The position numbers were made by a program, and so were the translations under genes. The notes under the pieces were generated by a model. It was given only the letters and a program-made list of their open reading frames with translations. It was not told the origin of the DNA and ran no database searches. Below are positions 159-52,934 of a stretch of 64,000 bases of DNA, piece by piece. Every line of letters begins with the position of its first letter. Positions within the stretch are counted from its first letter, which is position 1. The stretch is from a bacterium (GTDB lineage Bacteria; JAUVQV01; DATDCY01): assembly GCA_036524115.1 (NCBI GenBank), contig DATDCY010000012.1, forward strand, positions 22,396-86,395, in the 5' to 3' direction.

Positions 159-160
159 CC

Positions 161-10988: not shown

Positions 10989-12323
10989 CTATTTCTTGTG
11001 CATGCCCGGCGGCGGCTCCGGCGGGGCCGCCAGGGTCGGCGTCACCGTGACTTCGGCGTCGCCGCGCTTGAGCACCACCGTCGCCGTGTCCCCCGCCTTC
11101 TTGCCGTTGATCACGATGATCACGTCGCCCTGCTCGGCGATCGGGAAGCCGTCGATCGAGACGAAGGCGTCCCCGGCCTGGACGCCCGCCGCGGCGGCGG
11201 CCGAGCCCGGGACGACCTTGTCGACGTACACCGTCTTGTCCTCCGCGCGCAGCACGACGCCGAGCCGCACCCGCTTCTTCTCGACGTCCTCGTACGGCAC
11301 CAGCCACGCGAAGTCCCCGGGCAGCAGCGGGATCTCGGGGACGTCGACGTCCATCGTCAGCTCCTCGCGCAGCTCCTCGGGGATCGAGATCTCCTCCGGG
11401 AGGACGATGACCTGCGGCCAGGCGGCGCGGCGCAGCACCCGGCGCGGGATGCCCAGGCCGTAGCGCACGTGGAAGCCGCCGGCGACGACCACCATCTTCT
11501 TCCCCTCGCCGGCCGGGCTCCTGAGGTAGTCGACCACCCGCGAGGCCATCGTCTCGTCCCAGAGGACCTGCGTCCGGAAGAAGCTCTCGAACATCTTCTC
11601 CTTCGCGGCCTCGGAGCGCCGCTCCCGGGCCGTCGCCTCCATCCAGTCCTCATCGGGGTTCGCGGCGCGCGCGGCCGTGCCGTGCCCGGCGTCGTGCCCC
11701 CCGAACACCGCCTCGAGCAGGGCGCGCTGGTAGGGGTCGGAGAAGTCCGTCTCCGGCACCTTGGCGGCCAGCTCCGGCGGCAGCGGGCCGGATCCCGCGG
11801 CGGCGAACTGCTTCTGGGTCTCCTTCGCCGGGTCCAGCGCGATCACGTCCAGCCGGCGGTCGCGCGCGAGCTCGAGGATGCCGCGGTAGTTGCCGAAGTC
11901 GGAGCCCCAGTTGTCGAACCACTGGGACTCCTTGAGGAACTGCGGCTCGGTCAGCTCGCCGCGCACCCAGCGGTCGAGCGCGGGCTGCTGCGGCACGCGG
12001 AACATCTCCATGCCGATCGCGACCTTCCCGGGGTGGCGTCGCTCCAGCTCGGCGATGATGCGCCGCTGCGCCTCGTGCGCCTGGAAGTTGCTGTGCATCT
12101 CGCCGATGTAGACGACCTTGGCGGCGTCGACGATGTCCATCATCTGCTCGAAGCTCATGAGCAGGCCGGTCGGCATGTGGACGATGTCGCCGGCCTGTGG
12201 GGCGCGTGCGAGGGGGTAGGGCGAGAGCCCGCTGCCTGCCTCGGGTACCCGCGCGCCCGCGCAGCCGGCCAGGAGGGCGGCGCCGAACGAGAGCACAAGA
12301 AGGGCCATGGATCGTGACGTCAT
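10989..12323 (-). CDS. ChaN-family (Tiki-like, haem-binding) lipoprotein with C-terminal PDZ domain
   Basis: VVYIGEMHSNFQAHEAQRRIIAELERRHPGKVAIGMEMF...WFDNWGSDFGNYRGIL matches PF04187 by recollection. The C-terminus GDAFVSIDGFPIAEQGDVIIVINGKKAGD is a PDZ domain. Start MTSRSMALLVLSFGAALLAGCAG is a lipoprotein signal at 12323. Confidence 0.6.
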   Translation of the reverse strand: MTSRSMALLVLSFGAALLAGCAGARVPEAGSGLSPYPLARAPQAGDIVHMPTGLLMSFEQMMDIVDAAKVVYIGEMHSNFQAHEAQRRIIAELERRHPGKVAIGMEMFRVPQQPALDRWVRGELTEPQFLKESQWFDNWGSDFGNYRGILELARDRRLDVIALDPAKETQKQFAAAGSGPLPPELAAKVPETDFSDPYQRALLEAVFGGHDAGHGTAARAANPDEDWMEATARERRSEAAKEKMFESFFRTQVLWDETMASRVVDYLRSPAGEGKKMVVVAGGFHVRYGLGIPRRVLRRAAWPQVIVLPEEISIPEELREELTMDVDVPEIPLLPGDFAWLVPYEDVEKKRVRLGVVLRAEDKTVYVDKVVPGSAAAAAGVQAGDAFVSIDGFPIAEQGDVIIVINGKKAGDTATVVLKRGDAEVTVTPTLAAPPEPPPGMHKK

Positions 12324-15335: not shown

Positions 15336-16649
15336 CTACCGCAGGACTGCGTCGGTGAAGACGGCCGTGTTGTCGAAGAGGCTCCTCGCGCCCTCCGTGC
15401 GATAGCCGACGCGGCCCGAGGAGTTGACCACGAAGGTGTACGAGAGCACGGGCGCCGCGCTGCCGTTGAGGTAGACGCGCACCTTCGTGCCGCCCTCGAT
15501 GTCGACGCGCACCCGGTAGCCGGTGCCGGGACTGAGCCGGCGCCGCAGGGACGCCTTCAAACCGGCGCGCTCGACGGGAGTGGCGCCGACCTGTCCGATC
15601 GAGAGTCCGGTGGCGGTCAGCCGGAGGTAGCGGTAGTGCGTCGCATCCTGGTAGTGGAAGACGATCCGCGCATCCGGCGCGGCGGTGTAGGTGCGGGTCA
15701 GGCTGACCCAGCTCTCGATCCGCCCCGAACGCACGTCGCGAACGTTCGGGTCGGCGATCAGCGCCATGCTGACCGGCACGTTCGCCGAGGCGAAGCGCTT
15801 CGCCGTCCCGGTGACGGCCCACGCGCCCAGAACCCTCCGCCAGGACGGATCGCCCTTGGCCGTCCCGTCGCTGAAGTCGTCGACGAAGAGCCTGGGGTTG
15901 TCGGCGACGTTCGGGTCGGTCTCGCCGGCATCGACGCGTCCGTTGGCGTTGAGGTCCTCGCGGCCGTCGGCCAGGCCGTCGCCGTCCGTGTCGGCGGCGA
16001 GCGGGTCGGTGGCGGTGGCCGGATCGAGGTCGGGGCGGAAGACCGCCAGGTCGGTGTCCGGGCCCGCCATCGCCAGCGCGTACGCGAGCTCGGTGCCATC
16101 CTGGAGGCCGTCACCGTCGGTGTCGGCGACGCACGGATTGCTCTCGCCGGCGCCGGCCTGGCCGTCGTGGTCGGCATCCTCCAATCCGTCGGGGATGCCG
16201 TCGTCGTCGGTGTCCGCGTCGGTCGGGCTGGTGCAGCCGGCCGTCTCGAGCGTGTCGGCCAGGCCGTCGCCGTCCGAGTCGCCGCCCGCGTCCGCCTTGG
16301 GGTTGTAGACCACCTCGGCCGAGAGCGGGCTCTCCTGCCCGAGGAGGTCGTAGGCGGTGACAGCGGCGTGGTAGGCGACGGAGGCATCGAGGCCCGTCAG
16401 CGTGTAGGAGGAGACGTTGCCGACGTCGATGACCGACGAGAACGGCTGGCCCGAGAGCCCGTTGTGGACCATGTAGCCGACAGTGGTCTCCGCGGGATCG
16501 GGGTCCCACGAGATGGTGATCTGTCCGGCGAACGCCAGCGAGGGGGCGAGAAGAACCAGCGCCGCGCACAGCAGCCGGGTCACGCCGCCGTGCGGAAAGG
16601 CCCGCGTCTTCAGGGACCCGTTACCGTCGCCGAGACCGTGCCGTGCCAT
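15336..16649 (-). CDS. Secreted protein: FN3 domain, thrombospondin type-3-like Ca-binding Asp repeats, shared C-terminal domain
   Basis: Signal MARHGL...RLLCAALVLLAPSLAFA. FN3 (QITISWDPDPAETTVGYMVHNG...YHAAVTAYDLLGQESP). DxDxDGxxDxxE repeats (DSDGDGLADTLE, DTDDDGIPDGLEDADHDG, DTDGDGLQDGTE, DTDGDGLADGRED). C-terminus DDFSDGTAKGDPSW...HYRYLRL...IGQVG...AGLK...YRVRVDI. Confidence 0.7.
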   Translation of the reverse strand: MARHGLGDGNGSLKTRAFPHGGVTRLLCAALVLLAPSLAFAGQITISWDPDPAETTVGYMVHNGLSGQPFSSVIDVGNVSSYTLTGLDASVAYHAAVTAYDLLGQESPLSAEVVYNPKADAGGDSDGDGLADTLETAGCTSPTDADTDDDGIPDGLEDADHDGQAGAGESNPCVADTDGDGLQDGTELAYALAMAGPDTDLAVFRPDLDPATATDPLAADTDGDGLADGREDLNANGRVDAGETDPNVADNPRLFVDDFSDGTAKGDPSWRRVLGAWAVTGTAKRFASANVPVSMALIADPNVRDVRSGRIESWVSLTRTYTAAPDARIVFHYQDATHYRYLRLTATGLSIGQVGATPVERAGLKASLRRRLSPGTGYRVRVDIEGGTKVRVYLNGSAAPVLSYTFVVNSSGRVGYRTEGARSLFDNTAVFTDAVLR

Positions 16650-16988
16650 GAGAGCGCTCCTCCGCTGCTCCGGGCAATCCGCACCGGCGGAGGGGCGCAC
16701 CGCGGAGAGAGCACCCCGCGATGGCATCCCTTCGACTGGCAGCCCTGCCGCCGTATTCCCGCGCCGCGGGAAGCAGGCCGTCGGCTTTGCGTCCCACCCT
16801 TTCGGATGGTTTGCCCTGAGCAGTCCCGTTGTTGCCGTTCATCGTCTTCACCCGCGGAAAATCTAGAAGAGGGGGCGCGAAAAATAAGTGACGGGCGTCA
16901 CGCCGCACCGGGAATGTGACGGATGACCGAAAAAGCGATCGCCCCCACCTTCCCGCGGGGGACGATGGGGGCGATCGGACGAATGCGG

Positions 16989-18134
16989 CTAGTTGCTGCG
17001 GACGTTCTTCGGCGCGCCAGGCGGCGCCACGCCGATGCCTTGGACCGCGAAGTCGTAGGGGTTCTTGCCGGCGTCGTTGTTCGCGATGCTGAGCGTGGCC
17101 GTGCGCGTGCCGGCGACGCTCGGGTCGAAGCTCACGGTAAAGGTGGTGCTGGCCCCGGCCGCGATCGTTGCGGAGGGCTGCACGGTCACGGTGAAGTCGG
17201 CGGCGTTCGCGCCGGAAACGGCGACCAGCGGCGCGCCGGAGAGTGTCAGAGCGGCGGTGCCGGTATTTCGGATCGTGAAGGTGTGCGTCATGACGCCGCC
17301 CGTCAGCTTCGTCTTGCCGAAATCGGTGTCGTCGGTGCTGGAAGGCGCGACATCGCCGTCGGGAATCGCCGTGCCCTTGCCGAGCACGCTCATCGCGGGA
17401 GCGGTCGCGCCGGCGCCCTGGATCGCGAAGTCGTAGGGGTTCTTCGCCGCGACGTTGGTGGCGATCGAGATCGTCGCCGAGCGGGTGCCGGCGGCCCCGG
17501 CAACGAAGCTCACGGTGAAGGTGGTGCTGGCGCCCGCGGCGACCGGGGTCGTCGGCTGCGCCGTCACCGTGAAGTCCGCGGCGTTGGCGCCGCCGATGGC
17601 GACGAGCGGCGTCCCCGAGAGCGTCAGCGGGCCGGTGCCGACGTTCCGGATGGTGTAGGTGCGCGTCACCGCGGCGCCGCCGACGCCGGCCGTGCCGAAG
17701 TCGGTCTGGTCGGCCGCGGAGGGCGTGGTGTCGCCGTCGACGATCACGACCGCGTTGCCCAGGACGTTGACGTCCGGGACCCCGGGCACCGTGTACGGCA
17801 CCTCGTTGGAATAGCCGCTCTCGTTGCCGACGCTGTCGTAGGCGGTCGCGGCGAAGTAGTACGTCGTGCCGTCGGTCAGGCCGGTCACGGTGTAGGTCGT
17901 CACGTTGCCGGCGTCGATCGGCGTGCCGTAGACGCCGGATGCCGTCCCGTAATAGACCTTGTACCCTGTGACGTCAGGCTCGGTGTTCGCGTCCCACGCG
18001 AGCGTCACCTGGGCGGCGAGCGCCTGGCCCGCGCCGAGGATCAGGACCAATGCCAGGGCGATCCCGCCGCAGAGACGCGCCCGCCAGCGCGCGCCGTTGT
18101 TGTTTCTCCCGATCTCCCTGCTGACCGCTGCCAT
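16989..18134 (-). CDS. Secreted protein: FN3 domain plus two tandem roughly 115-aa ASH/'choice-of-anchor D'-like beta-sandwich domains
   Basis: Signal MAAVSREIG...LALVLILGAGQALA. FN3 (AQVTLAWDANTEPDVTGYKVYYG...YYFAATAYDSVGNESGYSNEV). Two copies of DG...DFG...TFTIRN.GT..LTLSG.PLV...G.NAADFTV...P...I.AGASTTFTVSF.....GTR.AT.SIA.N...KNPYDF..QG. It lacks the C-terminal domain shared by its three neighbours. Confidence 0.7.
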   Translation of the reverse strand: MAAVSREIGRNNNGARWRARLCGGIALALVLILGAGQALAAQVTLAWDANTEPDVTGYKVYYGTASGVYGTPIDAGNVTTYTVTGLTDGTTYYFAATAYDSVGNESGYSNEVPYTVPGVPDVNVLGNAVVIVDGDTTPSAADQTDFGTAGVGGAAVTRTYTIRNVGTGPLTLSGTPLVAIGGANAADFTVTAQPTTPVAAGASTTFTVSFVAGAAGTRSATISIATNVAAKNPYDFAIQGAGATAPAMSVLGKGTAIPDGDVAPSSTDDTDFGKTKLTGGVMTHTFTIRNTGTAALTLSGAPLVAVSGANAADFTVTVQPSATIAAGASTTFTVSFDPSVAGTRTATLSIANNDAGKNPYDFAVQGIGVAPPGAPKNVRSN

Positions 18135-21261: not shown

Positions 21262-21527
21262 GACAGACAGTTCCTCCCTGGCGTTGGGACGCTCTAGGCC
21301 GAAACGACGCAAAGATCCCTCGATTCTCGCGTTTCCTATTAACGCAATAATCATGTGGCCGGCCTCGCATGTCAAGGGGACGCTCTTGATCGATGCCCGG
21401 ACTTCACCGGGGCGAACCCGCATTTGCCGCGCTGGAGCGTCGCGCTTCATGATAAGAGAGTGAACAAAGTTGATATCAGGGGACCGATTTGGTAAGAATG
21501 TCCGCAAATCAATTCAGAGGAGCAATC

Positions 21528-23810
21528 ATGCACGGTCAGGTGCGGAAGGTTTCGCTGTGTCTCCTCGTCGCGATGGCATTCTCTCTCCTTCCGGGGTGCA
21601 GTTCAGAGCAGAAGAAGGCGAAGCATCTCAAGCGGGGCGAGGCCTACCTGGCGGAGTCGAAGGTGCGCGAGGCGATCATCGAGTTCCGGAACATGCTGCA
21701 GATCGACTCCCGGGACGCACTCGCGTACTACAAGCTCGGCCTGGCGTATCTCATGACCGGACAGGTCAAGGAGGCGTACGCCGATCTCTCGCGGAGCGTG
21801 GAATTGAACGCGGAGAACGTCGACGCGCAGCTCAAGCTCGCGGGCATTCTGCTCTCCGCCGGAGAGACCGGAAAGGCCAGAGAGAAGGTGACGCTCGTGC
21901 TGGCGAAGGAGCCGGGCAACGTCGAAGGGCACCTGCTGATGAGCGGGGTCGACGCCGCCTCAAAGGACATCGACGGCGCGATCGCCGAGGCGAAGAAGGC
22001 AGTCGAGCTCGACCCCAAGCGGATGCAGTCCTCCATACGGCTGGCCGAGCTGTATGCGGCCGCGCGCCAGACGGCCAAGGCCGAGGAGACGCTGAAGGCC
22101 GCGCTCGGCGTCGACGCGAACTCGCCGGAGGCGCACGCCGCTTACGGCGAGTTTCTGCGGGTCACGGGTCGCGTGGACGAAGCCGAGACGCAGTTCAAAC
22201 GCGTGGTGGAACTTCAGCCCCAGAAGGCCGAGTCGCACGTCCTGCTCGCACGTTTCTACATCGCGACGCGGCGGCCCGAGCCGGCGGGAAAGGCGCTGGC
22301 CGCGGCCATCGCGGCCGAGCCGAAGAACCCGATGCCCTACTTCACCCTCGCCGACTTCCAGCGCGCGCAGGGAAGCAGCGCCGAAGCCGAGGCGACGCTG
22401 CGCAAGGTCCTGGAATTCGACGCGGGGAACGCCCGCGCTCTCGGGACGATCGGGGAGGCCGCCCTGCTGCGCGGGAGGCCCGACGAGGCCGCCGCCACGG
22501 TCGAGGAGCTGCTCAAGCGCAACCCGAGCGACCCCCAGGGGCTGCTGCTCAAGGGCAGGATCGCCATGGGACGCGGCCAGTACCGGGAGGCCTTGGACAC
22601 GTTCCAGGCTGCCACCAAGGCCGCGCCGAACTTTGCGCCCGGGTGGTACTCGCTGGCGCTGGCCCACTTCGCGAACAAGGATGCGGAGCAGGGGAGGGCA
22701 GCGCTGCAGGAGGCGCTCAAGGTCGCGCCCGACTACCGCGAGGCGCGGTTGACTCTCGCGGATCTCGCGCTCAAGTCGAAGAACTTCGACGCGGCGCTCG
22801 AGGAAAGCAGCAGAGTCCTCGAGAAGGACCCCGACAACTACCAGGCGCGGTTGATCGCGGGCAGCGCCGCCTATTGGAAGAAGGACCTGGTCACGGCCGA
22901 GCGGCACTTTCAGGAGCTGTTGCGGATCGACCCGAAGAACCCGAACGGATTCCAGCTGATGGGCAGGCTGGCCGTCGCGAAGGGAAGGCTCGACGAGGCC
23001 GCTGCGCAGATGGAGAAGGCGCTCGCGCTCTCACCCGACTTCCTCCCGGCGCTCCAGGACCTCGCGATGCTGGCGATGATGCAGAAGCAGCCCGAGAAGG
23101 CGCTCGCCCGCGTGCAAAAGCAGGTCGAGGCGTCGCCGAGGAACCCGGCGTACCACCAGCTTCTCTTCCAGCTCTACGAGCGCGCCGGCAAGCTCGATCT
23201 CGCCGAGGCCAGCCTGAGGAAGGCCATGGACCTGGCGCCGGGGAACAACGGTCTCTACGTCGCCCTCGGCTCCTTCTACGGGCGGCACGGCATGATCGAC
23301 AAGGCGTTGCGGGAGGGGCAGACGGCCGTGGAGAAGCAGCCGGACTCGCTGCAGGCGCGTATGCTGCTTGGCGTCCTGTATGACTCGCGCGGGGAGACGG
23401 CCAAGGCCAAGGAGCAGTACGAGGCGGTCCTGCGGATCGACCCGAAGTTCGGTCCGGCGGCGAACAATCTCGCCTGGATCGAGGCCGAGCACGGCGGCAG
23501 CCTGGATCGGGCCATGCAGCTTGCGCAGATCGCGCAGGACAAGCTGCCGCAGGACCCGAACGTCGCCGACACCCTCGGCTGGGTCTTCTACAAGATGAAC
23601 ATGTTCTCGCGCGCCGTGACCTCCCTGGAGGAGGCCCGCGAGAAGATCGGCGACAACCCGGTCGTCCGCTATCACCTCGGCATGGCCTACTTCAAGAGCG
23701 GCAAGAACGCGCAGGCCGCCGCGGAGTTGAAGAAGGCGCTGGAGCTGAGTTCGGCCTTCGGCGGCGCGGACGAGGCGCGAAAGACACTGGGGGAGATCGG
23801 GAGCAAGTAG
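21528..23810 (+). CDS. prsT: PEP-CTERM system TPR-repeat lipoprotein (PrsT-like)
   Basis: Lipoprotein signal MHGQVRKVSLCLLVAMAFSLLPGCSS, with GAGGAG 7 nt upstream of ATG 21528. About 760 aa of back-to-back TPR repeats (AYYKLGLAYLMTGQVKEA...), the architecture of the TIGR02917 family. It is located immediately upstream of the PrsR-like gene. Confidence 0.7.
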   Translation: MHGQVRKVSLCLLVAMAFSLLPGCSSEQKKAKHLKRGEAYLAESKVREAIIEFRNMLQIDSRDALAYYKLGLAYLMTGQVKEAYADLSRSVELNAENVDAQLKLAGILLSAGETGKAREKVTLVLAKEPGNVEGHLLMSGVDAASKDIDGAIAEAKKAVELDPKRMQSSIRLAELYAAARQTAKAEETLKAALGVDANSPEAHAAYGEFLRVTGRVDEAETQFKRVVELQPQKAESHVLLARFYIATRRPEPAGKALAAAIAAEPKNPMPYFTLADFQRAQGSSAEAEATLRKVLEFDAGNARALGTIGEAALLRGRPDEAAATVEELLKRNPSDPQGLLLKGRIAMGRGQYREALDTFQAATKAAPNFAPGWYSLALAHFANKDAEQGRAALQEALKVAPDYREARLTLADLALKSKNFDAALEESSRVLEKDPDNYQARLIAGSAAYWKKDLVTAERHFQELLRIDPKNPNGFQLMGRLAVAKGRLDEAAAQMEKALALSPDFLPALQDLAMLAMMQKQPEKALARVQKQVEASPRNPAYHQLLFQLYERAGKLDLAEASLRKAMDLAPGNNGLYVALGSFYGRHGMIDKALREGQTAVEKQPDSLQARMLLGVLYDSRGETAKAKEQYEAVLRIDPKFGPAANNLAWIEAEHGGSLDRAMQLAQIAQDKLPQDPNVADTLGWVFYKMNMFSRAVTSLEEAREKIGDNPVVRYHLGMAYFKSGKNAQAAAELKKALELSSAFGGADEARKTLGEIGSK

Positions 23811-23861: not shown

Positions 23862-25253
<1,392 letters not shown>

Positions 25254-25271
25254 TCTCGCTCTTCTTTGAAC

Positions 25272-25288
25272 TGTAAAACTGTCTTACA
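25272..25288 (+). promoter_or_regulatory. Imperfect palindrome TGTAAaactgtcTTACA, a candidate enhancer (UAS) for the sigma-54 activator
   Basis: 14 of 17 positions are self-complementary (TGT-N11-ACA). It is centred about 116 bp upstream of the -24 element, a typical bEBP enhancer distance, and sits in the AT-richer intergenic region just after the prsR stop. Confidence 0.3.
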
Positions 25289-25395
25289 TGTTGCCAGACG
25301 GTCGCAGCACCACAAAGGACCTGCATTCTGGCGTCGATCATTTAAAAAGCAATATAATCAATGTGTTAGATTCGCAGATGCCCTACATTTCGGTT

Positions 25396-25411
25396 TGGCA
25401 CAACTCATGCA
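25396..25411 (+). promoter_or_regulatory. Sigma-54 (RpoN) -24/-12 promoter
   Basis: TGGCACaactcaTGCA compared with consensus TGGCACG-N4-TTGCA. The GG and GC dinucleotides are exactly 10 bp apart and the -24 hexamer is perfect. It lies 80 nt upstream of ATG 25491 and just downstream of the sigma-54 activator gene. Confidence 0.55.
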
Positions 25412-25490
25412 AACATGATTCAGGCAGAGAGCGATGATGACGAAAATGGGACGGTTGGTCTTCGGCGAGCACAGCGAAAGGAGATTGGTT

Positions 25491-25979
25491 ATGAAGAAGA
25501 AATGGATGGTGTTGGTGGTGGCCGCCCTGGTCCTGACGCTAGTACCGGTGGGACGCGCGCTGGCGACTACGATAACGCTGGACCTCCACAATAACGATGC
25601 TCCGATCTGCGCTCCCGGGACGGAGGGGTGCCCGAATGACGGCACCTATTGGCATTTCGTGATCGCTCCGGACAATGATTGGGCGACCTTCGTCCAGGTG
25701 CATCTCAATCTTGGCACCTCGTTCTACGACACATCGCTGTGGATTCAGCCACAGGTCGATCAGGTGTATGTGGCGGTGCCGACGGGGTTCCACTACGACG
25801 ACCTTCTTGTGAGTGGCAGCACCGCGACCGTTACCTATGCCGGGGATCTTCCTAAGAATGCCAAGTTCGTCCTGAGTCATGTCTGCGTGGCGAGTCAGGT
25901 TCCCGAGCCTTCTTCGCTGTTGCTTCTCGGCAGCGGAATCCTCGGCCTGGGCCTGATCCGCCGCCGGCGCCGCGCCTAG
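25491..25979 (+). CDS. PEP-CTERM sorting-domain protein (putative exosortase substrate), 163 aa
   Basis: Signal peptide MKKKWMVLVVAALVLTLVPVGRALA, with AGGAGA 8 nt upstream of ATG 25491. The C-terminus ...SQVPEPSSLLLLGSGILGLGLIRRRRRA has the PEP motif, a hydrophobic helix and an Arg-rich tail, which is the canonical PEP-CTERM tripartite signal. Confidence 0.8.
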   Translation: MKKKWMVLVVAALVLTLVPVGRALATTITLDLHNNDAPICAPGTEGCPNDGTYWHFVIAPDNDWATFVQVHLNLGTSFYDTSLWIQPQVDQVYVAVPTGFHYDDLLVSGSTATVTYAGDLPKNAKFVLSHVCVASQVPEPSSLLLLGSGILGLGLIRRRRRA

Positions 25980-26004
25980 ATTCGCCGGCCGCTCCGCAGC
26001 AACG

Positions 26005-26042
26005 CCGCCGCCCCTCGCAAGACGGGGCGGCGGTTTCTTTTT
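26005..26042 (+). terminator. Rho-independent terminator of the PEP-CTERM gene
   Basis: ccgccgcccc-tcgcaagac-ggggcggcgg is a perfect 10-bp GC stem. It is followed by tttcttttt. Confidence 0.7.
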
Positions 26043-26082
26043 GTCTCCCGTCACTTGGATGGCGCTCTCTCCTGATCAGCGC

Positions 26083-26664
26083 TCAATCCAAACGGACGTC
26101 GTCCAGGTAAATGGTCACTGGGGCCCGGGGATTCGCGACGAAGATGAACACGCGGCGGATGGACTCCCGGCGCAGGGGGCGGTGCGAGCCCGAGGTCACG
26201 AGCGAGGGCAGGGGGACAGCGATCCGATTGGCCCCCGGAACCAGTGAGAAGGTCCTGTTGAAGCGCTCCGGGAAGTCGGGGTACTCGGCGTCGTCGATGC
26301 GAAGCGTCAAGGGGACGTTGTTCGCGGCCGGGTTATACGCGTCGAATCGGAGCAGCCTCCGCCGGGACCAGTCCGGATCGAACGAGGCGAAGGTGATCCC
26401 AGGATAGGGCCGCGGATTGCCCGCGCTCGCCGGATAGAGCGTCATTTCCAGACTCGACCGGCCCGATGTTGCGTGCGAGGCAGAGAGGCGATAGATGGCG
26501 CCGCACTGCCACTGCAACTCGTCAAGAATGTCGCGCCTCTCGAACTCGTACTCGAATGGCCGTGTACGCTGACAGGCGACCAGGCCGATCGCGACGGTGA
26601 GAGCCGTCGCGGTTCGGCGGGTCGTACCTGACGACATGAGGCGACGGACAGCCGGGGCAATCAC
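26083..26664 (-). CDS. Hypothetical lipoprotein (possible beta-sandwich / carbohydrate-binding-like); function unknown
   Basis: Signal plus lipobox ...TATALTVAIGLVACQ. I recognise no catalytic motifs. It is convergent with the PEP-CTERM gene. Confidence 0.45.
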   Translation of the reverse strand: MIAPAVRRLMSSGTTRRTATALTVAIGLVACQRTRPFEYEFERRDILDELQWQCGAIYRLSASHATSGRSSLEMTLYPASAGNPRPYPGITFASFDPDWSRRRLLRFDAYNPAANNVPLTLRIDDAEYPDFPERFNRTFSLVPGANRIAVPLPSLVTSGSHRPLRRESIRRVFIFVANPRAPVTIYLDDVRLD

Positions 26665-27505: not shown

Positions 27506-27595
27506 CGCAGCCTGAGGATGCCCGATTCTCCGAGGCAAGGCCAGCAGGCCGCCCGTCTCCAGCGGTGCGCGAGACCCGGAACCGTTGGCGTAACC

Positions 27596-27624
27596 TTGAC
27601 TTCCCTTACGCAATTGTCTATTTT
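27596..27624 (+). promoter_or_regulatory. Candidate sigma-70-type promoter for the XrtA-locus operon (TTGACT-N17-TATTTT)
   Basis: The -35 TTGACT (5/6), a 17-bp spacer and the -10 TATTTT (4/6) lie in the 290-bp AT-richer divergent intergenic region, about 170 nt upstream of the deacetylase start. This is pattern matching only. Confidence 0.25.
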
Positions 27625-27797
27625 GTTTGCGGTTTTGCTTCGGACAGACAGCCATTATTGGGTACCGGGCGGCCGAGGCTCTTGAGCGTCGGCCTGCGGC
27701 GGTAGCCCGTCTCGGTTTTCCTTGATCGACTCTGGGCTTACCTTTCAGAACCTCAGCCAGACTCTGATCCGCGCGCTCAGGACAGGAGTCACGCCCT

Positions 27798-41753: not shown

Positions 41754-42776
41754 ATGACCGGAAGCGGCGTGAGCGTGATCATGCCCACGTTCAACAGGGC
41801 GCAGTTCATCCCACGGGCCATCGCATCGTGCCTCGGTCAGCTCGAGGAAGGCGACGAGCTGATCATTGTCGATGATGGGTCCACGGATGAAACGGAGAGA
41901 GTGGTTGCGGAGTTCCGGAACCGATGTCGTTACATCAAGAGCGAGAACCGCGGGGCCGGGAGAGCGAGGAACATCGGGCTCGACGCGGCAAGCGGCAGCC
42001 TCGTGGGTTTCATTGACTCCGACGACGAGTGGACACCCGGCAAGTTGAAGATTCAACGCGAGTTCATGCGCCGAATGCCAGAGGTTGCGTACTGCTTCAG
42101 CGACTTTCGTGTTGTGGAGGAAGCGACGGGGCGCGAGCACGGAGCCGGCGTGGTGGCATGGTCGCTCGACCGCCGGCCTTGGGAGCAGATTCTCGGCGCG
42201 GGAAGGCCGGTCTCGTCGGTGATGGACCTCCCGCGGGGGGTGCCCGACTTCAGCTTCCATGTCGGCAGCATGTATCTGAACGAGTTGTCCGCCAACTACA
42301 TCAACGTAAACACCCTGCTCGTGCGAAGGGGCGCGAGGACCAGGGACGTTCGTTTCGCCGAGGATACGCCGACCTACGAGGACTGGGAGTACTTCGGGGC
42401 GCTCTCGGGGCGGGGCGCGGGGGCCTATCTCGACGTCGAGACTGCGTGCCAGCACAATCACGGCGGGCAACGGCTCACCGACGCCCACATCACGGAATGC
42501 GCGCGTGCCCGCGTCCGGATCATGCAGAGAGTCTGGGGCAGCGACCGCAGTTTCCTGGCGGACAATGGGCGAATCTACCAGAAGGTCCTGGACGAGCAGA
42601 ACCTCCTCGCGGCGAAGGGCCTCCTGGCGCGAGGCGAAGTCGCCGCGGCGAAAGCGCACCTTCGCTCGATGGAGCGGCCGCCCGTTGTGTATCGACTGAT
42701 TTCCCGGTTGCCGGACGCGACGGTGCGTGGGCTGACGCGCACCTACAAGTGCTCCAAGGGGTGGCTGTCCACGTGA
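41754..42776 (+). CDS. Glycosyltransferase family 2
   Basis: VSVIMPTFNRAQFI...IIVDDGSTDET...GFIDSDDEW has the GT-A DxD/DD motifs. Start is uncertain among GTG 41724, ATG 41736 and ATG 41754. Confidence 0.7.
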   Translation: MTGSGVSVIMPTFNRAQFIPRAIASCLGQLEEGDELIIVDDGSTDETERVVAEFRNRCRYIKSENRGAGRARNIGLDAASGSLVGFIDSDDEWTPGKLKIQREFMRRMPEVAYCFSDFRVVEEATGREHGAGVVAWSLDRRPWEQILGAGRPVSSVMDLPRGVPDFSFHVGSMYLNELSANYINVNTLLVRRGARTRDVRFAEDTPTYEDWEYFGALSGRGAGAYLDVETACQHNHGGQRLTDAHITECARARVRIMQRVWGSDRSFLADNGRIYQKVLDEQNLLAAKGLLARGEVAAAKAHLRSMERPPVVYRLISRLPDATVRGLTRTYKCSKGWLST

Positions 42777-44281
42777 GCGACGATCTGCGGCGGGCGAAGG
42801 TGGCGGCTCTCGCCGTTGTAGCGGCGTATCTGGCGACCGTTGCACCGGTTCTCGTCGGCCTGGTGCATACGTGGCTGAGCCAGGACGAGTATGCGCACGG
42901 TTTCCTGATCCCCTTGATCAGCGGCTACCTCGTCTACTCTCAGCGGGAGCGGCTGCGGTCGATCGGCATCAGGCCAATGCCGGTGGTCGGACTTGCCGCC
43001 CTTGTTGTCGGCTGCCTGGTCTTCCTGCTCGGACAACGGGGCGGCATCGTGACGGTGGAGCGCATCTCTGTCATCCTGATGCTCATGGCGTCGATCCTGC
43101 TGCTTCTCGGGTATGAGTTCTTCCGCGCGCTTCTTCTGCCGCTTCTGTACCTGTTCTTCATGATCCCGATTCTCGATCTCTCCGCCAATGCGATCCACTG
43201 GCCGTTCCAACTGGTCACCGCGACGATCGCCGCAAAGGCTCTCGCATTGTTCGGGGTCCCCGTCTTGCAGTCGCAGCAGTACCTGCACTTGCCAAGCATC
43301 ACGCTGGAAGTGGCGAATCTCTGCAGCGGCGCTCGGTTCTTCATCTCGATCGTCGCCATCGGCATTCCCCTGGCATACTTCACACAGCGGACCTTCCTGC
43401 GCCGGGCGGCCCTTCTGGGGTTTGCGATCTTGATCAGCATCGTCACCAACGGCGTCCGGGTCACCCTGATCGGGGTCTGGGCGTACTACTTCAATACGAC
43501 CGCCGATATTCACGGGCCGGCCCACGTTCTGCAAGGGCTCTTTGTCTCCGTCGTTGGGTACGTGGTCCTCTTCGCGGTGGCGATTGCGTATTCCGAGAGC
43601 CGCCCGCGAGAAGCCGGTTCGGCGAAGGCCGGGTTCAGCGCAAAGCCGACGAACGGCCGCATCAACGAGGTGGTCAGGGCAAGTGCCGCTGCCCTGGTTG
43701 CTCTTGGCTTCGTCTTCGTCTACGCCTACGTGGTTCCCCTGCGCGACGTTGCTGAGCCGAATGCCGGCAACCGACTGTCCCCGTCCTTCGGCACCTGGGA
43801 TATCCGCAGCGCAGAAAGCAGTCAGATGTTGCCGGGGGCCGACCATGAACTAAACGTCACGTATCGCAGCGAAGACGGGAGGAGCGTCGGTGTCTATCGG
43901 GGGTATTTCGCCTCCCAGAGGCAGGGGAAGGAATGCATCGAATCCGGGTCCAAGTGGGGCGCGCAGCGCGGCGAACTGTTGCGGCTTCGCCTGCCGGAAG
44001 GAGGAACCGCCGAGGTCAATGCGGCAACGTACATCGACGGGTCCCAGGAGTATCTCGCGCTGTACTGGTACGAGCTGGACGGCCGGACATTTGCCCGGAG
44101 AGGCGAGGTCAAGCTTCGGACGGCGCTCAACGGGGTGCTGCGCAACAGAAACAACGGCGCGGTCGTGGTCGTCTATCGTCACATCGACAATGCAGGGGAG
44201 CGCGCGCCGGCGACTGCGGAGCTCTCCGACTTTGTGAGCCGGTCGGGCCTCCTCCGCGCGCGGGCGGGTGAGACGTCATGA
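42773..44281 (+). CDS. xrtA: Exosortase A (XrtA/EpsH) with fused C-terminal EpsI domain
   Basis: GTG 42773 overlaps the GT2 stop as GTGA. N-terminus ...LVHTWLSQDEYAHGFLIPLISGYLVY is the exosortase E.YSHGFLIPL-type motif. There are about 8 TM helices including the conserved Arg region (NGVRVTLIGVWAYYF). The C-terminal roughly 170 aa (TM plus periplasmic domain) is EpsI-like. The track ORF 42029.. is read-through. Confidence 0.8.
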   Translation: MSDDLRRAKVAALAVVAAYLATVAPVLVGLVHTWLSQDEYAHGFLIPLISGYLVYSQRERLRSIGIRPMPVVGLAALVVGCLVFLLGQRGGIVTVERISVILMLMASILLLLGYEFFRALLLPLLYLFFMIPILDLSANAIHWPFQLVTATIAAKALALFGVPVLQSQQYLHLPSITLEVANLCSGARFFISIVAIGIPLAYFTQRTFLRRAALLGFAILISIVTNGVRVTLIGVWAYYFNTTADIHGPAHVLQGLFVSVVGYVVLFAVAIAYSESRPREAGSAKAGFSAKPTNGRINEVVRASAAALVALGFVFVYAYVVPLRDVAEPNAGNRLSPSFGTWDIRSAESSQMLPGADHELNVTYRSEDGRSVGVYRGYFASQRQGKECIESGSKWGAQRGELLRLRLPEGGTAEVNAATYIDGSQEYLALYWYELDGRTFARRGEVKLRTALNGVLRNRNNGAVVVVYRHIDNAGERAPATAELSDFVSRSGLLRARAGETS

Positions 44282-44479: not shown

Positions 44480-45676
44480 ATGAAGAGAATCTTGTATATC
44501 GAGGGCAACCGGGACGGGACTGTTGGCGGCTCGTACTACAGTCTCCTCTATCTCATCCAGGGTCTCGATAGATCAAAGTATGAGCCTCACGTGCTCTTCT
44601 TCGAGTCGAATCGTTTGATTCCTGAGTTCGCGAAGGTTGCTGTCAGCGTCAGGGTCGAGGACCTACGGGCGTCGAACAGCGATTGCTGCGGCTCGCTTGT
44701 CGACGTTTTGAGGTGGCCTTATGAGTTGCTCGTTGACGTGATCGCCCGGCAGCCGCGGATAGGCCGAATCATAAGAGAGGTTCGGCCCGATCTAGTTCAC
44801 CTCAACAACGGCTACTCCGGCATGCACGATTGGATGCTCGCCTGTCGTCTCAATGGCCTGAGGATCATCGCGCACGACCGCGGGACGAGTTGCCCGTGCA
44901 GCCTGCGGACGAGGATGCTTGTGAGGTTGCTGGACGCGGTCATCTGCGTCAGCGAGAGCTTCCGAGACAACGCGGTGCGCCAGGGATTGAGGGTGCCATT
45001 CTATCGCGTCTACAATGGACTGGATGTGCATGTGTCGTCGTTAAAGCACGCCGATACCAGTTCCGCAGAGGTGCGGCGGAGCCTCGGTGTCTCTGAAGGA
45101 CGGGTGGTCCTCGGGATGGTGGGGAACATACTCAGGTGGAAGGGCCAAGCAGTAGTGCTGCGGGCGCTTCGCACCATCGTGAGAAATCATCCTGATGTGG
45201 TCTGTGTGTTCGTTGGGGACGTACCGCGGGGCGAAGAGGAATACAAACGCGAACTCGAGGAATATGTTCTAGCCCATGGTCTTCAAGATCACGTTGTCTT
45301 TGCCGGCTACAGGAAGGACGTGGCCGATGTCCTCCAGACTGTAAGCGTGTTGGTTCACGCGTCTATCTCGCCAGAGCCTTTTGGGCGCGTGATTCTCGAG
45401 GGTATGGCGGCAGGCAAACCTGTTGTCGGGACGGATGCGGGCGGTGCCGCGGAAATCATAGTGAATGGGCAGACGGGTCTATTAGTGCCGATGGACGACG
45501 CGCCGGCGCTGGCCGAGGCATTGGACAGCTTGCTGCGCGACCCTGCTAGGGCTATTGAGATGGGGAGAAGGGGCAGGAGGCGAGTGATCGAGGATTTCAG
45601 TGCCGCGCGAATGGTCGGGGAAACGGAGCGGGTGTACGACAAGGTGTTTGCGTCCCGGCGCAACGTCCTTCTCTAG
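44480..45676 (+). CDS. Glycosyltransferase family 4 (GT-B, group 1)
   Basis: GGAAEIIVNGQTGLLVP...E(x7)E-type GT4 C-terminal domain. This is the first gene of the lower-GC block. Confidence 0.75.
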   Translation: MKRILYIEGNRDGTVGGSYYSLLYLIQGLDRSKYEPHVLFFESNRLIPEFAKVAVSVRVEDLRASNSDCCGSLVDVLRWPYELLVDVIARQPRIGRIIREVRPDLVHLNNGYSGMHDWMLACRLNGLRIIAHDRGTSCPCSLRTRMLVRLLDAVICVSESFRDNAVRQGLRVPFYRVYNGLDVHVSSLKHADTSSAEVRRSLGVSEGRVVLGMVGNILRWKGQAVVLRALRTIVRNHPDVVCVFVGDVPRGEEEYKRELEEYVLAHGLQDHVVFAGYRKDVADVLQTVSVLVHASISPEPFGRVILEGMAAGKPVVGTDAGGAAEIIVNGQTGLLVPMDDAPALAEALDSLLRDPARAIEMGRRGRRRVIEDFSAARMVGETERVYDKVFASRRNVLL

Positions 45677-45853
45677 CGAAGGACCAGCGTCATGTGTCCG
45701 AGTCGGGTACGAGGCGCGAATCGGCGACGCGTACGCATCTGCATGATGAGTCCAATCCCGATGCGCGTCGTTCTTGGGTCGGCGCGTTCTTGGTGTCGAC
45801 TAAGGGAGCGGCACGGTGTGAAGCGCGCGGGCACGGCGTTAGGAGGCTGGTGA

Positions 45854-46441
45854 ATGTTTAGGCGAATTGCGAGATGCGTTAGGACTTATCGGAAGAGGCG
45901 GCATATCGAACTTCTGCAGCGCCGAGGAATGAAGCTGGGCACAAATGTTCAGATTGAAGGCGACTGCTTCTTCGATCCTTCTCACTGCTTTCTCATCGAG
46001 ATCGAAGATCATTGTGCGTTGGCGCCAAACGTCAAGCTCATAGCGCACGATGGCAGTATGTATCGGTTTCTTGGCGCGACAAGAATTGGACGGATCCGGC
46101 TGCGTCGAAATTGTCTAATTGGTGACTCCACGATCATATTGCCCGGCGTGACCATCGGCGAGAATTCTATAGTGGGGTCCGGTTCCGTTGTGGTGAAAGA
46201 TGTGCCGCCCAATGTAGTGGCAGCGGGAAATCCTGCCAAGGTAATTTGCGGTCTTGAGGAATTCCTCGCCAAGCACCGGCGAAATCTGGAAAGCTCTAGA
46301 AGGTTCGGCGAAGAAGAATACGGCATTCGGTTCATTACAGACGAGAAGCGAAACGAGATGCTTAGATATCTGGCGGATAACCCCATCGCCTACATGGAGG
46401 GATTCACACCAGACATCTCCATGCTCAACAAGCGGACATGA
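45854..46441 (+). CDS. Hexapeptide-repeat (LbH) O-acetyltransferase, maltose/galactoside acetyltransferase-like
   Basis: [49 protein letters not shown] lies 9 nt upstream. Confidence 0.75.
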
Positions 46442-46447
46442 AGTCCT

Positions 46448-47584
46448 TTGAGTCTGAGGCAAGGTGACTTGAGTCTTCGCATCATTCAGGTAAGCCACGA
46501 CCTAAACATAGGGGGTCTGCAACGGGTAGTTGTCAATCTCGCCAAGGCCTTTCGAGAGCGCGGCTGCAACGTGTCAGTGCTTGTCCTACGTGAGCGTGGA
46601 CCTCTTGCTGAGGAACTGAACCGGAGCGGCGTGGATGTCCTCACGTTGCCTGGGGGCCGTAGGGTCGACTACCTGTCCTTAATGAAGATTTCTCGAATCA
46701 TCAAGGAACAGAAACCGCACGTCGTACATACGCACAATACACAACCGTTCATAGAGGGAGGCTTAGCGGCCCTGATATGTAGAGTCCCAGTGATAGTTCA
46801 CACGGACCACGCCCGATGTTATCCGGACAAACGTCGTTACATGCTAATGGAGCGTCTGTTATCAAGACATGTGAACCGAATCGTTGCGGTGTCTGACCAC
46901 ACGAGGGACGATCTCATCCGCTACTGCGGAATATCGGGGAAGAACATTCGAGTTATTCACAATGGCATTGACGGGACATGGAGCAGCGGACCAGTGGGGC
47001 GACTACAGAAGCTGAACGAGCTTGGGCTTCGTCCCACGGATGGGCCCCTCATCGGTCTTGGGGTGAGGCTTTGCTCCCAGAAGGGCGTAGGCTACCTGAT
47101 CAAGGCGATGCAGTTAGTTGTCAAAGAGTTCCCAAAGGCGACACTCCTGATTGCCGGCGATGGGGAACTCCGAAGTCAGTTGGACTGTGAGGCGAAACAA
47201 TTGGACCTGGATGAGAATGTTCACTTTGTGGGTCCCCGACTGGACATGCCGGAGATTCTGCGAATTCTGGACATCTATGTGCTGCCTTCACTCTGGGAGG
47301 GTCTCCCTCTGGTCCTTCTTGAGGCGATGGCGGCAGCGTTGCCGGTCGTTGCCACCGATGTGGGAGGGAATCGTGAGGTGGTTCGCGATGGACGCAACGG
47401 TTTCCTTGTCCAGCCCTGTGATTCGCCCGCCCTGGCCAAGGCTCTCCTGAACTTAATAGCGGATGCAGACATGAGGGCATCATTTGGCGAGCAGTCTCGT
47501 GAGATCTTTGAATCGGAATTTGCGCTACCACGTATGGTCGAAAATTACGAGAAGCTCTACCTGGAATGCCTCGGGCGTCGCTAG
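46448..47584 (+). CDS. Glycosyltransferase family 4
   Basis: LRIIQVSHDLNIGGLQRVV...GGNREVVRDGRNGFLV. The start is a TTG (46448 or 46469); no ATG is available. Confidence 0.75.
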   Translation: MSLRQGDLSLRIIQVSHDLNIGGLQRVVVNLAKAFRERGCNVSVLVLRERGPLAEELNRSGVDVLTLPGGRRVDYLSLMKISRIIKEQKPHVVHTHNTQPFIEGGLAALICRVPVIVHTDHARCYPDKRRYMLMERLLSRHVNRIVAVSDHTRDDLIRYCGISGKNIRVIHNGIDGTWSSGPVGRLQKLNELGLRPTDGPLIGLGVRLCSQKGVGYLIKAMQLVVKEFPKATLLIAGDGELRSQLDCEAKQLDLDENVHFVGPRLDMPEILRILDIYVLPSLWEGLPLVLLEAMAAALPVVATDVGGNREVVRDGRNGFLVQPCDSPALAKALLNLIADADMRASFGEQSREIFESEFALPRMVENYEKLYLECLGRR

Positions 47585-47599
47585 GCAGAAGGTATTCTC

Positions 47600-49084
47600 G
47601 TGTCGATGACTCATCGGGCCTTGAAGGAAGGAGCCTGGTATGGCGGTCTCCGCGTAGTCTCTCAAGCGTGCTCGTGGGCGGTGACGATCGCCATAGCACG
47701 TATTCTTCGCCCAACAGACTATGGGCTGGTCGCAATGGCGACCGTCCTTACGGGGTACATCGAAATCTTTAACGAGATGGGACTTGGTGCGGCGATTGTT
47801 CAGCGAAAGCAGGTGACTGAGGAGGAACTCTCAAGTGTGTTCTGGTTCACCCTGCTCACCGGGTTCCTTTTCGCCTTGGCGGCGTGGCTTCTCGCCTACC
47901 CAACCGCCAAGTTATTCGCCGAGCCAAGGCTGGTTGCAATTACACGAACATGCGCGCTGTTGTTTGTCATAAGTTCGATGACGTCTGTTCCTTATAGCCT
48001 TCTTCAACGTGAAGTGCGGTTTCGAGAGATTGGACTAATTGGGTTGATAGCGTCCCTAGTCCAGACCTCGGCGATGCTTGCGATGGCGATCATGGGCTTT
48101 GGGGTATGGACGCTCGTCGGCGGTCAGGTCATCCAGCGGACGATGACTTCGGTCCTGAGCTTCTGGAGATCATCCTGGTGGCCTAAGCTTCATTTTCGGC
48201 TTATCGAGACGCGACAGATGCTATACTTTGGACTGAATATTGCAGCGTCGCGGTCGGTCTTCTATCTCTTTCAGCGATCAGACCAGTTCATCATAGGTAA
48301 AGTCTTCAACGCAATGCTGCTCGGTCTCTATTCACTTGCGTTTCAGTTGGCAAGCATTCCCACGGACAAGGTGGTATCCATCGTGCAGCAAGTGTCCTTT
48401 CCGGTATTCTCGAGGATGCAAGGCAATCCGGATGAGTCGAGGCGACTCTACTTGAAGCTGAATTACTACATCGCGCTGGGAGTCACACCCGTCTACGCCG
48501 CGGGGCTACTATTTGCGGATCCGCTCATTCCAATCTTGCTGGGCGAGAAGTGGCGGTCCATCATCCCGCTTTTTCGGATGCTGTGCGTTATGAACTTCTT
48601 TTTGAATATCAGCGATCTTAACAACACTGTTCATACGGCGCAGGGGAGGCCACGGTGGCGGCTCTACTATATGCTAGTATCGGTAACGGTAATGCCGGCG
48701 CTCATCCTGGTGGCGGCACTCTATGGGTTCGAATTTGTAGGGATTCCATGGATCACGGTCTTTCCGTTGATCTGTGTTGGCTGGATACTGATTAGCTTGA
48801 GAAAACTGGAGATCAGGTATGGAGAGTATCTGCGAATCTTTGCGGTTCCATCGGGCGCGACGATGGCCATGGCCACAGGCGTCTTTGTTCTTAGGAAGCT
48901 GCCGGGATGGCCTGGTTCGCGTCCTTACGGCGGCGCCGCTGTGTTGGCGATTGAGATACTTTTCGCCGGTGCTATCTTTTTGGTTACCGTTGCCGTTACC
49001 GATAGGCGGGCATTCGACGGGATGATGGCCCTCGTCCGTCCTAAGCTGGAACGAACGCCACCGGAAGAGGCCGACGCGGGCTAG
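47600..49084 (+). CDS. Wzx-type polysaccharide flippase (MOP superfamily, 'polysaccharide biosynthesis protein')
   Basis: About 14 TM helices, with N-terminus GAWYGGLRVVSQACSWAVTIAIARIL and the central GLGAAIVQ motif typical of Wzx/RfbX. Confidence 0.75.
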   Translation: MSMTHRALKEGAWYGGLRVVSQACSWAVTIAIARILRPTDYGLVAMATVLTGYIEIFNEMGLGAAIVQRKQVTEEELSSVFWFTLLTGFLFALAAWLLAYPTAKLFAEPRLVAITRTCALLFVISSMTSVPYSLLQREVRFREIGLIGLIASLVQTSAMLAMAIMGFGVWTLVGGQVIQRTMTSVLSFWRSSWWPKLHFRLIETRQMLYFGLNIAASRSVFYLFQRSDQFIIGKVFNAMLLGLYSLAFQLASIPTDKVVSIVQQVSFPVFSRMQGNPDESRRLYLKLNYYIALGVTPVYAAGLLFADPLIPILLGEKWRSIIPLFRMLCVMNFFLNISDLNNTVHTAQGRPRWRLYYMLVSVTVMPALILVAALYGFEFVGIPWITVFPLICVGWILISLRKLEIRYGEYLRIFAVPSGATMAMATGVFVLRKLPGWPGSRPYGGAAVLAIEILFAGAIFLVTVAVTDRRAFDGMMALVRPKLERTPPEEADAG

Positions 49085-49140
49085 TGTAGTGTTCCACAAC
49101 ACTGGCAGGAAGCAAGGATATAGGAAGAGCGGAGCGCTTC

Positions 49141-50247: not shown

Positions 50248-50434
50248 TCCATTGTCATCGGCAGGTTCGTCATATCGCTCACGTGTGCCTGGTGGCGAGG
50301 CCGAACCCGAGTCGGCGGAAGCGACTCGCCTCGCGCCAATAGGAGCGATGCCTTGGAGCGACTTGACGACTGCGATAGCCCGACCCCGGTGTGGTCTTGT
50401 CGGCCCGTCGCGGGGCCAATCTTGAGATAGATCC

Positions 50435-51679: not shown

Positions 51680-51802
51680 GCCTCGTTCAATCGCCACCAC
51701 GCATGCCTGACTGGTTCATCGTCCCTCACCGATGGACAAAGTGCTGGACTACGGTGTGCACCGGTTTCTGGGTACATCCGACTATGGCACCGGTGTGTTG
51801 AT

Positions 51803-52894: not shown

Positions 52895-52934
52895 TCAGGA
52901 TGGGGGTGTTTGCCGGACGGCGGGAGACGCTTCG

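Follow-up and report, generated by a model that had tools for sequence, protein, structure and literature searches.

We analyzed a stretch of 64,000 nucleotides (nt) from contig DATDCY010000012.1 of a bacterial assembly (GCA_036524115.1), which we will call the window. Positions 25254..26042 of the window probably comprise a complete expression unit of the PEP-CTERM box type, in which the gene for a PEP-CTERM protein (a putative exosortase substrate) is controlled by the response regulator PrsR and by sigma-54. A first-pass annotation of this DNA had described a monocistronic exosortase substrate gene under sigma-54/PrsR control, and both computation and analogy support that description. The support for the unit comes from the presence of the expected elements, their statistics, their conservation, and the assignment of the proteins to families; from these, we infer the mechanism in this organism. 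The architecture itself is already known: it was published in 2006 (Haft et al. 2006, BMC Biol 4:29; PMC1569441) and the accounts in PMC9012009 and PMC9850573 describe its genetic validation in Zoogloea and Aquincola. We therefore consider the finding to be correct but not new, and because this class of mechanism is established and was tested genetically in both genera, no new question is opened. What the window adds are increments, namely a site for integration host factor (IHF), a long spacer, a non-proteobacterial lineage, a prsT-prsR pair without a nearby prsK, an exosortase of the XrtW type, and a variable slot beside prsR.

Haft and colleagues reported that over 65% of PEP-CTERM genes form operons on their own and are preceded by more than 200 nt of DNA (PMC1569441). 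In Proteobacteria, a 17-nt motif (motif 1) that has TTTACA at its 3' end is common to these upstream regions. Motif 1 is sometimes repeated and was predicted to be the binding site of a response regulator. A second 17-nt motif (motif 2) matches the -24/-12 consensus of sigma-54; its mean distance upstream of the start codon is 71 nt. The two motifs are separated by a spacer of 62.8 +/- 10.6 nt (range 32-92). The phylogenetic profile of this DNA element coincides exactly with those of PrsR, PrsK, and PrsT, and prsK and prsR are in tandem in 12 of 13 genomes. The window is similar: its PEP-CTERM gene is monocistronic and is preceded by over 200 nt of non-coding DNA, which includes a 17-nt motif 1 that ends in TTTACA and a sigma-54 motif 2. 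Its prsR and prsT genes also belong to a locus for exopolysaccharide and an exosortase. The intergenic region between prsR and the PEP-CTERM gene (25254..25490) is 46% GC over 237 nt; the mean GC content of the window is 65%, and that of the DNA on the upstream side is ~70%. This agrees with the drop to roughly 45-50% GC after prsR that had been claimed. All of the elements listed by the first-pass annotation (prsR, the low-GC spacer, the palindrome TGTAAaactgtcTTACA, the promoter TGGCACaactcATGCA, and a terminator) are present at the positions in Table 1.

The -24/-12 promoter, which had been called near-consensus, is well supported. In TGGCACaactcATGCA, the GG (25397-98) and the GC (25409-10) are 12 nt apart, as in the consensus. 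This is the sole match in the 64 kb to TGGCAC-N5-WTGCW, even with one mismatch allowed. With TGGCAC-N5-TTGCW and up to two mismatches, it is the sole intergenic site, and the six other matches are all within coding open reading frames (ORFs). When we shuffled the 237-nt region while preserving its dinucleotides, a sigma-54 site appeared on the + strand in 0.04% of trials (P = 0.0004). The element is also conserved. The orthologous promoter in a related locus (L001), which precedes a homologue with 49% identity, is TGGCACtgaatATGC and is 72 nt from that homologue's ATG, and the -24/-12 element is kept at 23 PEP-CTERM promoters of related loci. In the window, there are 79 nt between the promoter element and the ATG at 25491, which is close to the reported mean of 71 nt (the difference in coordinates is 80, which matches the distance of about 80 nt given originally). 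Transcription is predicted to start near 25422, which would give a leader of ~69 nt. A structured leader or riboswitch was considered and rejected: nothing in 25254..25490 matched Rfam at the gathering thresholds, and the fold of the predicted 5' untranslated region has a z-score of +0.7. By analogy with characterized PEP-CTERM genes, we infer that transcription of this gene is RpoN-dependent in this organism.

To compare the upstream DNA with that of related loci, we scanned for PrsR in one genome per species, which gave 20 loci, and a scan of metagenomes added 72. (Loci are numbered from L001 on.) Sigma-54 sites were gathered across 95 loci without using motif 1. We required at most two mismatches and, downstream of the site, either an ORF with a PEP-CTERM tail or a truncated ORF with a signal peptide. 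This yielded 23 sigma-54 sites, or 18 non-redundant sites after the window was excluded. Gibbs sampling in the 200 nt upstream of the 18 sites recovered a 17-nt motif, CGTCGGAATTCTTTACA, in 15 of them. Four of its positions are invariant (G2, T3, A15, and C16, or GT-N11-AC), and the site at 25272..25288 carries all four. We then scored the window with a position weight matrix (PWM) built from the 15 sites. The top match in the whole 64 kb, on either strand, was 25272..25288, with 15.2 bits in the minus-strand reading (P = 0.014, using a null model with the intergenic composition). A PWM from seven hand-picked sites, again without the window, had the same top match, and 0.4% of intergenic shuffles scored as high (P = 0.004). 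On the minus strand the site reads TGTAAGACAGTTTTACA, which terminates in TTTACA as motif 1 does in Haft et al. Also, TGTAAaactgtcTTACA is unique in the window. The site ends 107 nt upstream of TGGCAC, and its centre is ~142 nt upstream of the predicted start. The first-pass annotation had picked it out as a candidate enhancer because it is an imperfect palindrome; the candidate is borne out by the comparison (the two PWMs), not by its palindromic character. The comparison supports 25272..25288 as this family's 17-nt motif 1 and as the predicted PrsR site.

We also noticed a motif-1-like sequence, TGTCTATTTTGTTTGCG, at 27615..27631. It scored 13 bits with the 7-site PWM and lies in a 292-nt divergent intergenic region (27506..27797) that separates the genes for a metallophosphatase and an XrtA-type deacetylase. 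We rejected it as a second motif 1 site: there is no sigma-54 element nearby, and it drops out with the 15-site PWM. It overlaps a sigma-70-like promoter match (27596..27624), and its resemblance to motif 1 is probably due to chance.

Between the putative enhancer and the promoter, and centred near -60 from the predicted start, is an IHF-like site. It is the sole match to WATCAANNNNTTR in the 64 kb, and the probability of finding the consensus in the shuffled 237-nt region is 0.012. Of 19 related PEP-CTERM promoters, five have a relaxed consensus, WATCARNNNNTTR, on this strand, as compared to 0.27 expected, and none of the simulated sets reached five (0/2000). Measured from TGGCA, the window's site is at -40, and the other four range from -50 to -52. 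Haft et al. (PMC1569441) do not mention IHF. We consider an IHF-type protein to be a candidate for acting at 25356..25368. At the nifH, glnHp2, and Pu promoters, an activator site at about -100 to -150 and an IHF site near -50 to -70 are combined with a -24/-12 element, and the activator reaches the promoter by DNA looping. The upstream activator site, IHF site, and -24/-12 element of the window are arranged in a similar way, with a role for IHF that we propose from the sequence alone. Unlike at those promoters, both the activator and the 17-bp sequence that it is predicted to bind are particular to the PEP-CTERM system.

The regulator encoded just upstream had been described as PrsR-like. It is a bona fide PrsR, given its score against TIGR02915 (Table 1) and the intact motifs in its translation: the receiver's VVDDEE, the phospho-acceptor Asp in VVILDLGLPP, the Walker A sequence GENGTGKE, the GAFTGA motif, and a C-terminal helix-turn-helix of the Fis type. 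The second-best model, AtoC, is far under its own cutoff. prsT ends 51 nt before prsR, and the two genes are probably co-transcribed. The true start of prsT inside its ORF is uncertain.

Several observations weigh against our reading of the unit, and the first concerns how PrsR would be activated. The original report of no PrsK-type kinase beside prsR agrees with our results. No histidine kinase turned up in those ORFs of the 64-kb window that we screened (large ORFs with high GC content at third codon positions, and other selected ORFs), so PrsK (TIGR02916) was not found in tandem with prsR or near it. Using tblastn with a PrsK sequence, we found no match in the window or in L003, L004, or L075. 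These are all of the loci that have both upstream sequence and a PrsR at least 81% identical; in each of them, prsT is directly before prsR and the available flanks lack prsK. PrsK was thus found neither in the window nor in the available flanks of its closest relatives.

It is possible, although we lean against it, that PrsR is a true orphan in this lineage. The unit would still work, but its input would be another kinase, small-molecule phosphodonors, or PrsT, or would be independent of phosphorylation, and the input logic would be unlike that of the classical PrsK-PrsR pair. The distribution of prsK is consistent with this. Besides the lack of a detected kinase in the window and in the clade with at least 81% identity, more distant relatives do carry prsK. 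The order is prsT-prsK-prsR in L005, L007, L008, L010, L013, and L015, and in a clade whose PrsR is 68-73% identical, prsK is convergent and 1-2 kb downstream of prsR (L026, L027, L028, and L066). The tandem arrangement in 12 of the 13 genomes of Haft et al. (PMC1569441) points the same way. On the other hand, the receiver retains its acidic pocket, the Asp that accepts the phosphate, and the Ser and Lys, as a regulator that depends on a kinase would. Also, the contigs of the relatives, which are metagenome-assembled genomes (MAGs), are short (6.8 kb for L003, and a 17-kb contig for L004), so prsK may lie elsewhere in these genomes. When we used the PrsK of L027 as a query, 79 proteins were returned and none was labelled as Rokubacteria; this search for related PrsK proteins was uninformative as to taxonomy. 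A match on a long contig (P0041) was rejected as this lineage's PrsK, since it belongs to an unrelated prsK-prsR-PEP-CTERM locus.

A second set of difficulties concerns the link between PrsR and motif 1. The intergenic region contains three palindromes with 5-bp arms (0-12 nt apart), versus 3.4 expected in shuffles. Because the palindrome alone is not beyond chance, the claim of an enhancer must rest on the comparative motif evidence. The score of the site with the 7-site PWM was reached by 8 of 100 shuffles of the whole window. The window's copy of motif 1 is divergent (15 bits), with half-sites of TGTAAR instead of the consensus CGTCGG. And at 107 nt, the spacer is beyond the range of 32-92 nt for Proteobacteria (mean 62.8 nt; PMC1569441). 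The first three of these points would fit a functional sigma-54 promoter that is activated by another enhancer-binding protein, encoded elsewhere, with the palindrome having arisen by chance or serving some other factor. We consider this to be quite improbable. Of the 128,000 positions in the window (both strands), 25272..25288 is the best PWM match, and it lies directly downstream of prsR and at the expected distance upstream of the only intergenic sigma-54 site. Sites with TGTAAR half-sites precede other PEP-CTERM genes (on the minus strand of L001, and in L061), and no second enhancer-binding protein is encoded in the window. As for the spacer, its length is bimodal in the sample of related, non-proteobacterial loci: 11 of the 15 have 114-131 nt and the other four have 62-76 nt. 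The window's 107 nt falls between these two classes. In L076, whose PrsR is 90% identical, the motif 1 site is also reverse-oriented and the spacer is 104 nt.

The remaining points concern transcription. The rpoN and ihf genes were not seen within the window. The prsR stop codon is followed merely by a weak 5-bp hairpin and TCTTCTTT, so some read-through from prsT-prsR is possible, and the -12 element is ATGCA instead of TTGCA; but it is very unlikely that most expression of the gene comes from read-through or a sigma-70 promoter, with a non-functional -24/-12 match, as no sigma-70-like promoter was found in 25254..25490, the -24/-12 element is kept in the orthologous promoter and at the 23 related promoters, and RpoN dependence of such genes was demonstrated in two species (as described in PMC9012009 and PMC9850573). 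We continue to favor control of the gene by PrsR and sigma-54.

The PEP-CTERM gene is where the first-pass annotation placed it, but its product is not 163 amino acids: it has 162 (163 codons including the stop), and public gene calls of the identical protein also have 162. We rejected the in-frame ATG at 25434 as the start codon, as it lacks a ribosome-binding site and would be just ~12 nt away from the predicted start of transcription. The protein has a Sec signal peptide, MKKKWMVLVVAALVLTLVPVGRALA, and its tail (residues 137-161) matches TIGR02595 with 27.6 bits (cutoff 16) and PF07589 with 31.4 bits (cutoff 20.7), which confirms the Sec signal and PEP-CTERM tail noted previously. No other ORF of the window has a PEP-CTERM tail. 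Residues 68-161 align to positions 166-261 of NF033554, the model of the flocculation-associated protein PepA (46.1 bits, E = 5e-12), so that the similarity is to the last third of PepA. We did not assign the protein to the PepA family, as the score is under the cutoff of 80 bits and the C-terminal 94 residues alone match.

Among 5.8 billion proteins, we found one that is identical, one that is 49% identical, and one that is 43% identical; a fourth match was to the PEP-CTERM tail only. The identical protein was deposited in NCBI as a PEP-CTERM protein from a MAG, on a contig of 90.9 kb, and it is also encoded on a 6.3-kb Logan contig (run DRR101456). The passenger domain (~110 amino acids) is predicted to be a beta-sandwich. 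The AlphaFold2 model is all-beta, with a mean predicted local distance difference test score (pLDDT) of 66 and a core at 70-80. Using Foldseek against the PDB, we found no match with E <= 0.001, merely generic similarity to beta-sandwiches or carbohydrate-binding modules with template modeling scores below 0.4. Given the mean pLDDT of 66 and the lack of a significant match in the PDB, we dropped the assignment of a function to the passenger from its structure. By analogy with PepA, the 162-amino-acid protein may tether exopolysaccharide to cells.

A strong terminator had been claimed, and this stands, with the stem now read as 26004..26034. The hairpin has a folding energy of -28 kcal/mol (centroid) or -31 kcal/mol (minimum free energy) and is followed by TTTCTTTTT. 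Its form is canonical, although its z-score is only -1.7 when the GC-rich sequence is shuffled for comparison. This terminator at the 3' end of the gene, together with the convergent gene downstream, supports the claim that the gene is monocistronic.

The window also encodes an exosortase fused to an EpsI domain. The best model for it is NF038142 (Table 1), and it also matches TIGR02602 (168.6 bits, cutoff 105.55) and TIGR02914 (EpsI; 75 bits). This XrtW-type exosortase is presumed to be the processing enzyme for the PEP-CTERM protein. We found no literature on XrtW.

Given these components, we propose the following mechanism. PrsR would be phosphorylated at the Asp of its receiver and would then bind the 17-bp quasi-palindrome as a dimer or oligomer. 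An IHF-type protein would bend the AT-rich spacer, so that the AAA+ ring of PrsR could contact the sigma-54 holoenzyme in the closed complex at the promoter. ATP hydrolysis would open the promoter and allow transcription from near 25422. The predicted product is a monocistronic mRNA with the ~69-nt leader, the AGGAG sequence, and the ATG, and it would end at the hairpin and T-tract. The 162-amino-acid protein would be exported by Sec, and its PEP-CTERM tail would be cleaved and the protein transferred by the XrtW-type exosortase, which is encoded 17 kb downstream in the same locus. Processing would presumably fix this small beta-sandwich protein to exopolysaccharide or to the cell surface.

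Table 1. Genes and sequence elements of the PEP-CTERM unit and its surroundings, in window coordinates.
Feature	Coordinates	Strand	Evidence or description
prsT	21489..23810	+	TIGR02917, 387.5 bits (cutoff 312.2); TPR-repeat protein of the PEP-CTERM regulatory system
prsR	23862..25253 (TGA stop 25251-25253)	+	TIGR02915, 617.3 bits (cutoff 502.6); NtrC-type sigma-54 enhancer-binding response regulator
Motif 1 of the PEP-CTERM box, predicted PrsR site	25272..25288	.	17-bp quasi-palindrome TGTAAAACTGTCTTACA
IHF-like site AATCAATGTGTTA	25356..25368	+	Perfect match to WATCAANNNNTTR
Sigma-54 (-24/-12) promoter TGGCACaactcATGCA	25396..25411	+	TGGCAC-N5-ATGCA
Shine-Dalgarno sequence AGGAG	25479..25483	+	7 nt before the ATG at 25491
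PEP-CTERM protein gene (162 amino acids)	25491..25979	+	TIGR02595 and PF07589, both above cutoffs
Intrinsic terminator, GC-rich hairpin then TTTCTTTTT	26004..26042	+	Folding
Next gene, convergent (193-amino-acid ORF)	26083..26664	.	ORF map
Exosortase with fused EpsI domain, XrtW type	42776..44281 (start approximate)	+	NF038142, 479.5 bits (cutoff 425)

The host of the window does not appear to be one of the Proteobacteria. In the scan of one genome per species, the two closest relatives of its PrsR (88-89% identical) are from MAGs labelled Candidatus Rokuibacteriota or Rokubacteria. PrsR proteins that are 51-68% identical are from genomes labelled as Deltaproteobacteria, Verrucomicrobiota/Opitutales, Vicinamibacterales, Nitrospirota, and others, and motif 1 paired with a sigma-54 site is also found in MAGs labelled Verrucomicrobiota and Vicinamibacterales. 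In contrast, the DNA motif of Haft et al. was in Proteobacteria only. A probably PrsR/sigma-54-controlled exosortase substrate in an uncultured, non-proteobacterial lineage from soil or sediment implies that this cis-element is more widespread than the 2006 study proposed. The comparison also supplies a refined 17-nt consensus, with its invariant GT-N11-AC, and the candidate site for an IHF co-factor. Besides its lineage and its long spacer, the unit differs from that of Haft et al. in that the spacer holds an IHF consensus; motif 1 is a symmetrised variant with TGTAAR half-sites that scores best in the reverse orientation; prsR has no prsK beside it; and the exosortase is of the XrtW type, not XrtA.

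The first-pass annotation called the unit self-contained, and the variability of its position supports this. In two related loci (L076 and L023), prsR on one side and the convergent 193-amino-acid ORF and the metallophosphatase gene on the other are conserved flanks. The slot between prsR and the convergent ORF holds the 162-amino-acid PEP-CTERM gene in the window (25254..26082), a different and unrelated PEP-CTERM gene of 246 amino acids that brings a box of its own in L076 (497..1608), and ~120 nt with no gene in L023 (1423..1542). In L001, which is syntenic, the 3' part of prsR is accompanied by three PEP-CTERM genes and an exosortase gene. A short ORF in L001 (3281..3478, + strand), just past the terminator of the orthologue, has a degenerate PEP-CTERM-like tail, EVPEPSTPLLIGCGFPSHAGMNRRKNSL, and may be what is left of a PEP-CTERM gene that was duplicated or has decayed.

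We tentatively suggest that PEP-CTERM boxes outside the Proteobacteria include a distinct class with a long spacer (~100-130 nt) and with an IHF site placed near -50 relative to TGGCA. Within the Rokubacteria-like clade, boxes of this class would be driven by a PrsR that no longer has its cognate PrsK and would sit in a slot beside prsR where PEP-CTERM cassettes are swapped. We think that this is less likely to be true than not. If it is, then these organisms would have a different signal input and a modular way to change the surface protein that is shown on the exopolysaccharide.

In Zoogloea resiniphila MMB, RpoN and PrsK-PrsR control pepA but leave the synthesis of exopolysaccharide unaffected (Gao et al. 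2018, cited in PMC9012009). In Aquincola tertiaricarbonis RN12, pepA is RpoN1-dependent; its mapped start is downstream of TGGCAC/CTGCTT, and an enhancer was predicted upstream (PMC9850573). Like these genes, the gene in the window encodes a small secreted PEP-CTERM protein and has a TGGCAC-type promoter and a predicted upstream enhancer, which for the window are known from sequence. In another similarity, the genes for exopolysaccharide biosynthesis are not under sigma-54 control: there is no other intergenic sigma-54 site in the window that might control the polysaccharide genes. The C-terminal 94 residues of the window's protein resemble PepA (NF033554). Unlike those PepA proteins, it scores under the family's cutoff, its passenger has two detectable homologues, and it is from a different phylum.

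The window is a typical exosortase polysaccharide locus. A deacetylase, a FemAB-type protein, and one acyl-CoA ligase are above the cutoffs of XrtA-system models, while an amidotransferase, a hydrolase, a decarboxylase, and a second acyl-CoA ligase match such models below the cutoff. Glycosyltransferases and a flippase are also encoded. The exosortase is XrtW-type, yet many of the accessory genes match models for the XrtA system and the regulators are PrsR and PrsT. Around 45000..59000, the GC content falls from ~65-70% to ~50-55% over ~14 kb. This stretch encodes glycosyltransferases, an acetyltransferase, a MOP flippase, an O-antigen-ligase-like protein, and several ORFs without a family match, and it is probably a cassette within the polysaccharide locus that was acquired horizontally or swapped.

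Next to prsT-prsR is a minus-strand run of genes for large extracellular proteins (with fn3, PKD, PPC, and choice-of-anchor D domains). One of these genes, ORF 15336..16727 (-), encodes a probably secreted protein of 463 amino acids with fn3, TSP3, and CglD-like matches, and its leader contains a cyclic di-GMP-I riboswitch aptamer (16735..16825, minus strand; RF01051, 58 bits versus a gathering score of 35). There is no sigma-54 site before this riboswitch. The same class of riboswitch (~74 bits) is found in two other prsR loci, at 86..176 (-) in L005 and at 11529..11619 (-) in L008. In L008, the riboswitch is followed by the gene for an fn3 protein whose N-terminal region is similar to that of another ORF of the window (16989..18134). 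Sigma-54-type promoters, TGGCATaacacTTGCT and TGGCATtcttgTTGCA, lie ~40-55 nt upstream of the riboswitches of L005 and L008, which suggests that surface proteins in these two loci are under tandem control by sigma-54 and cyclic di-GMP.

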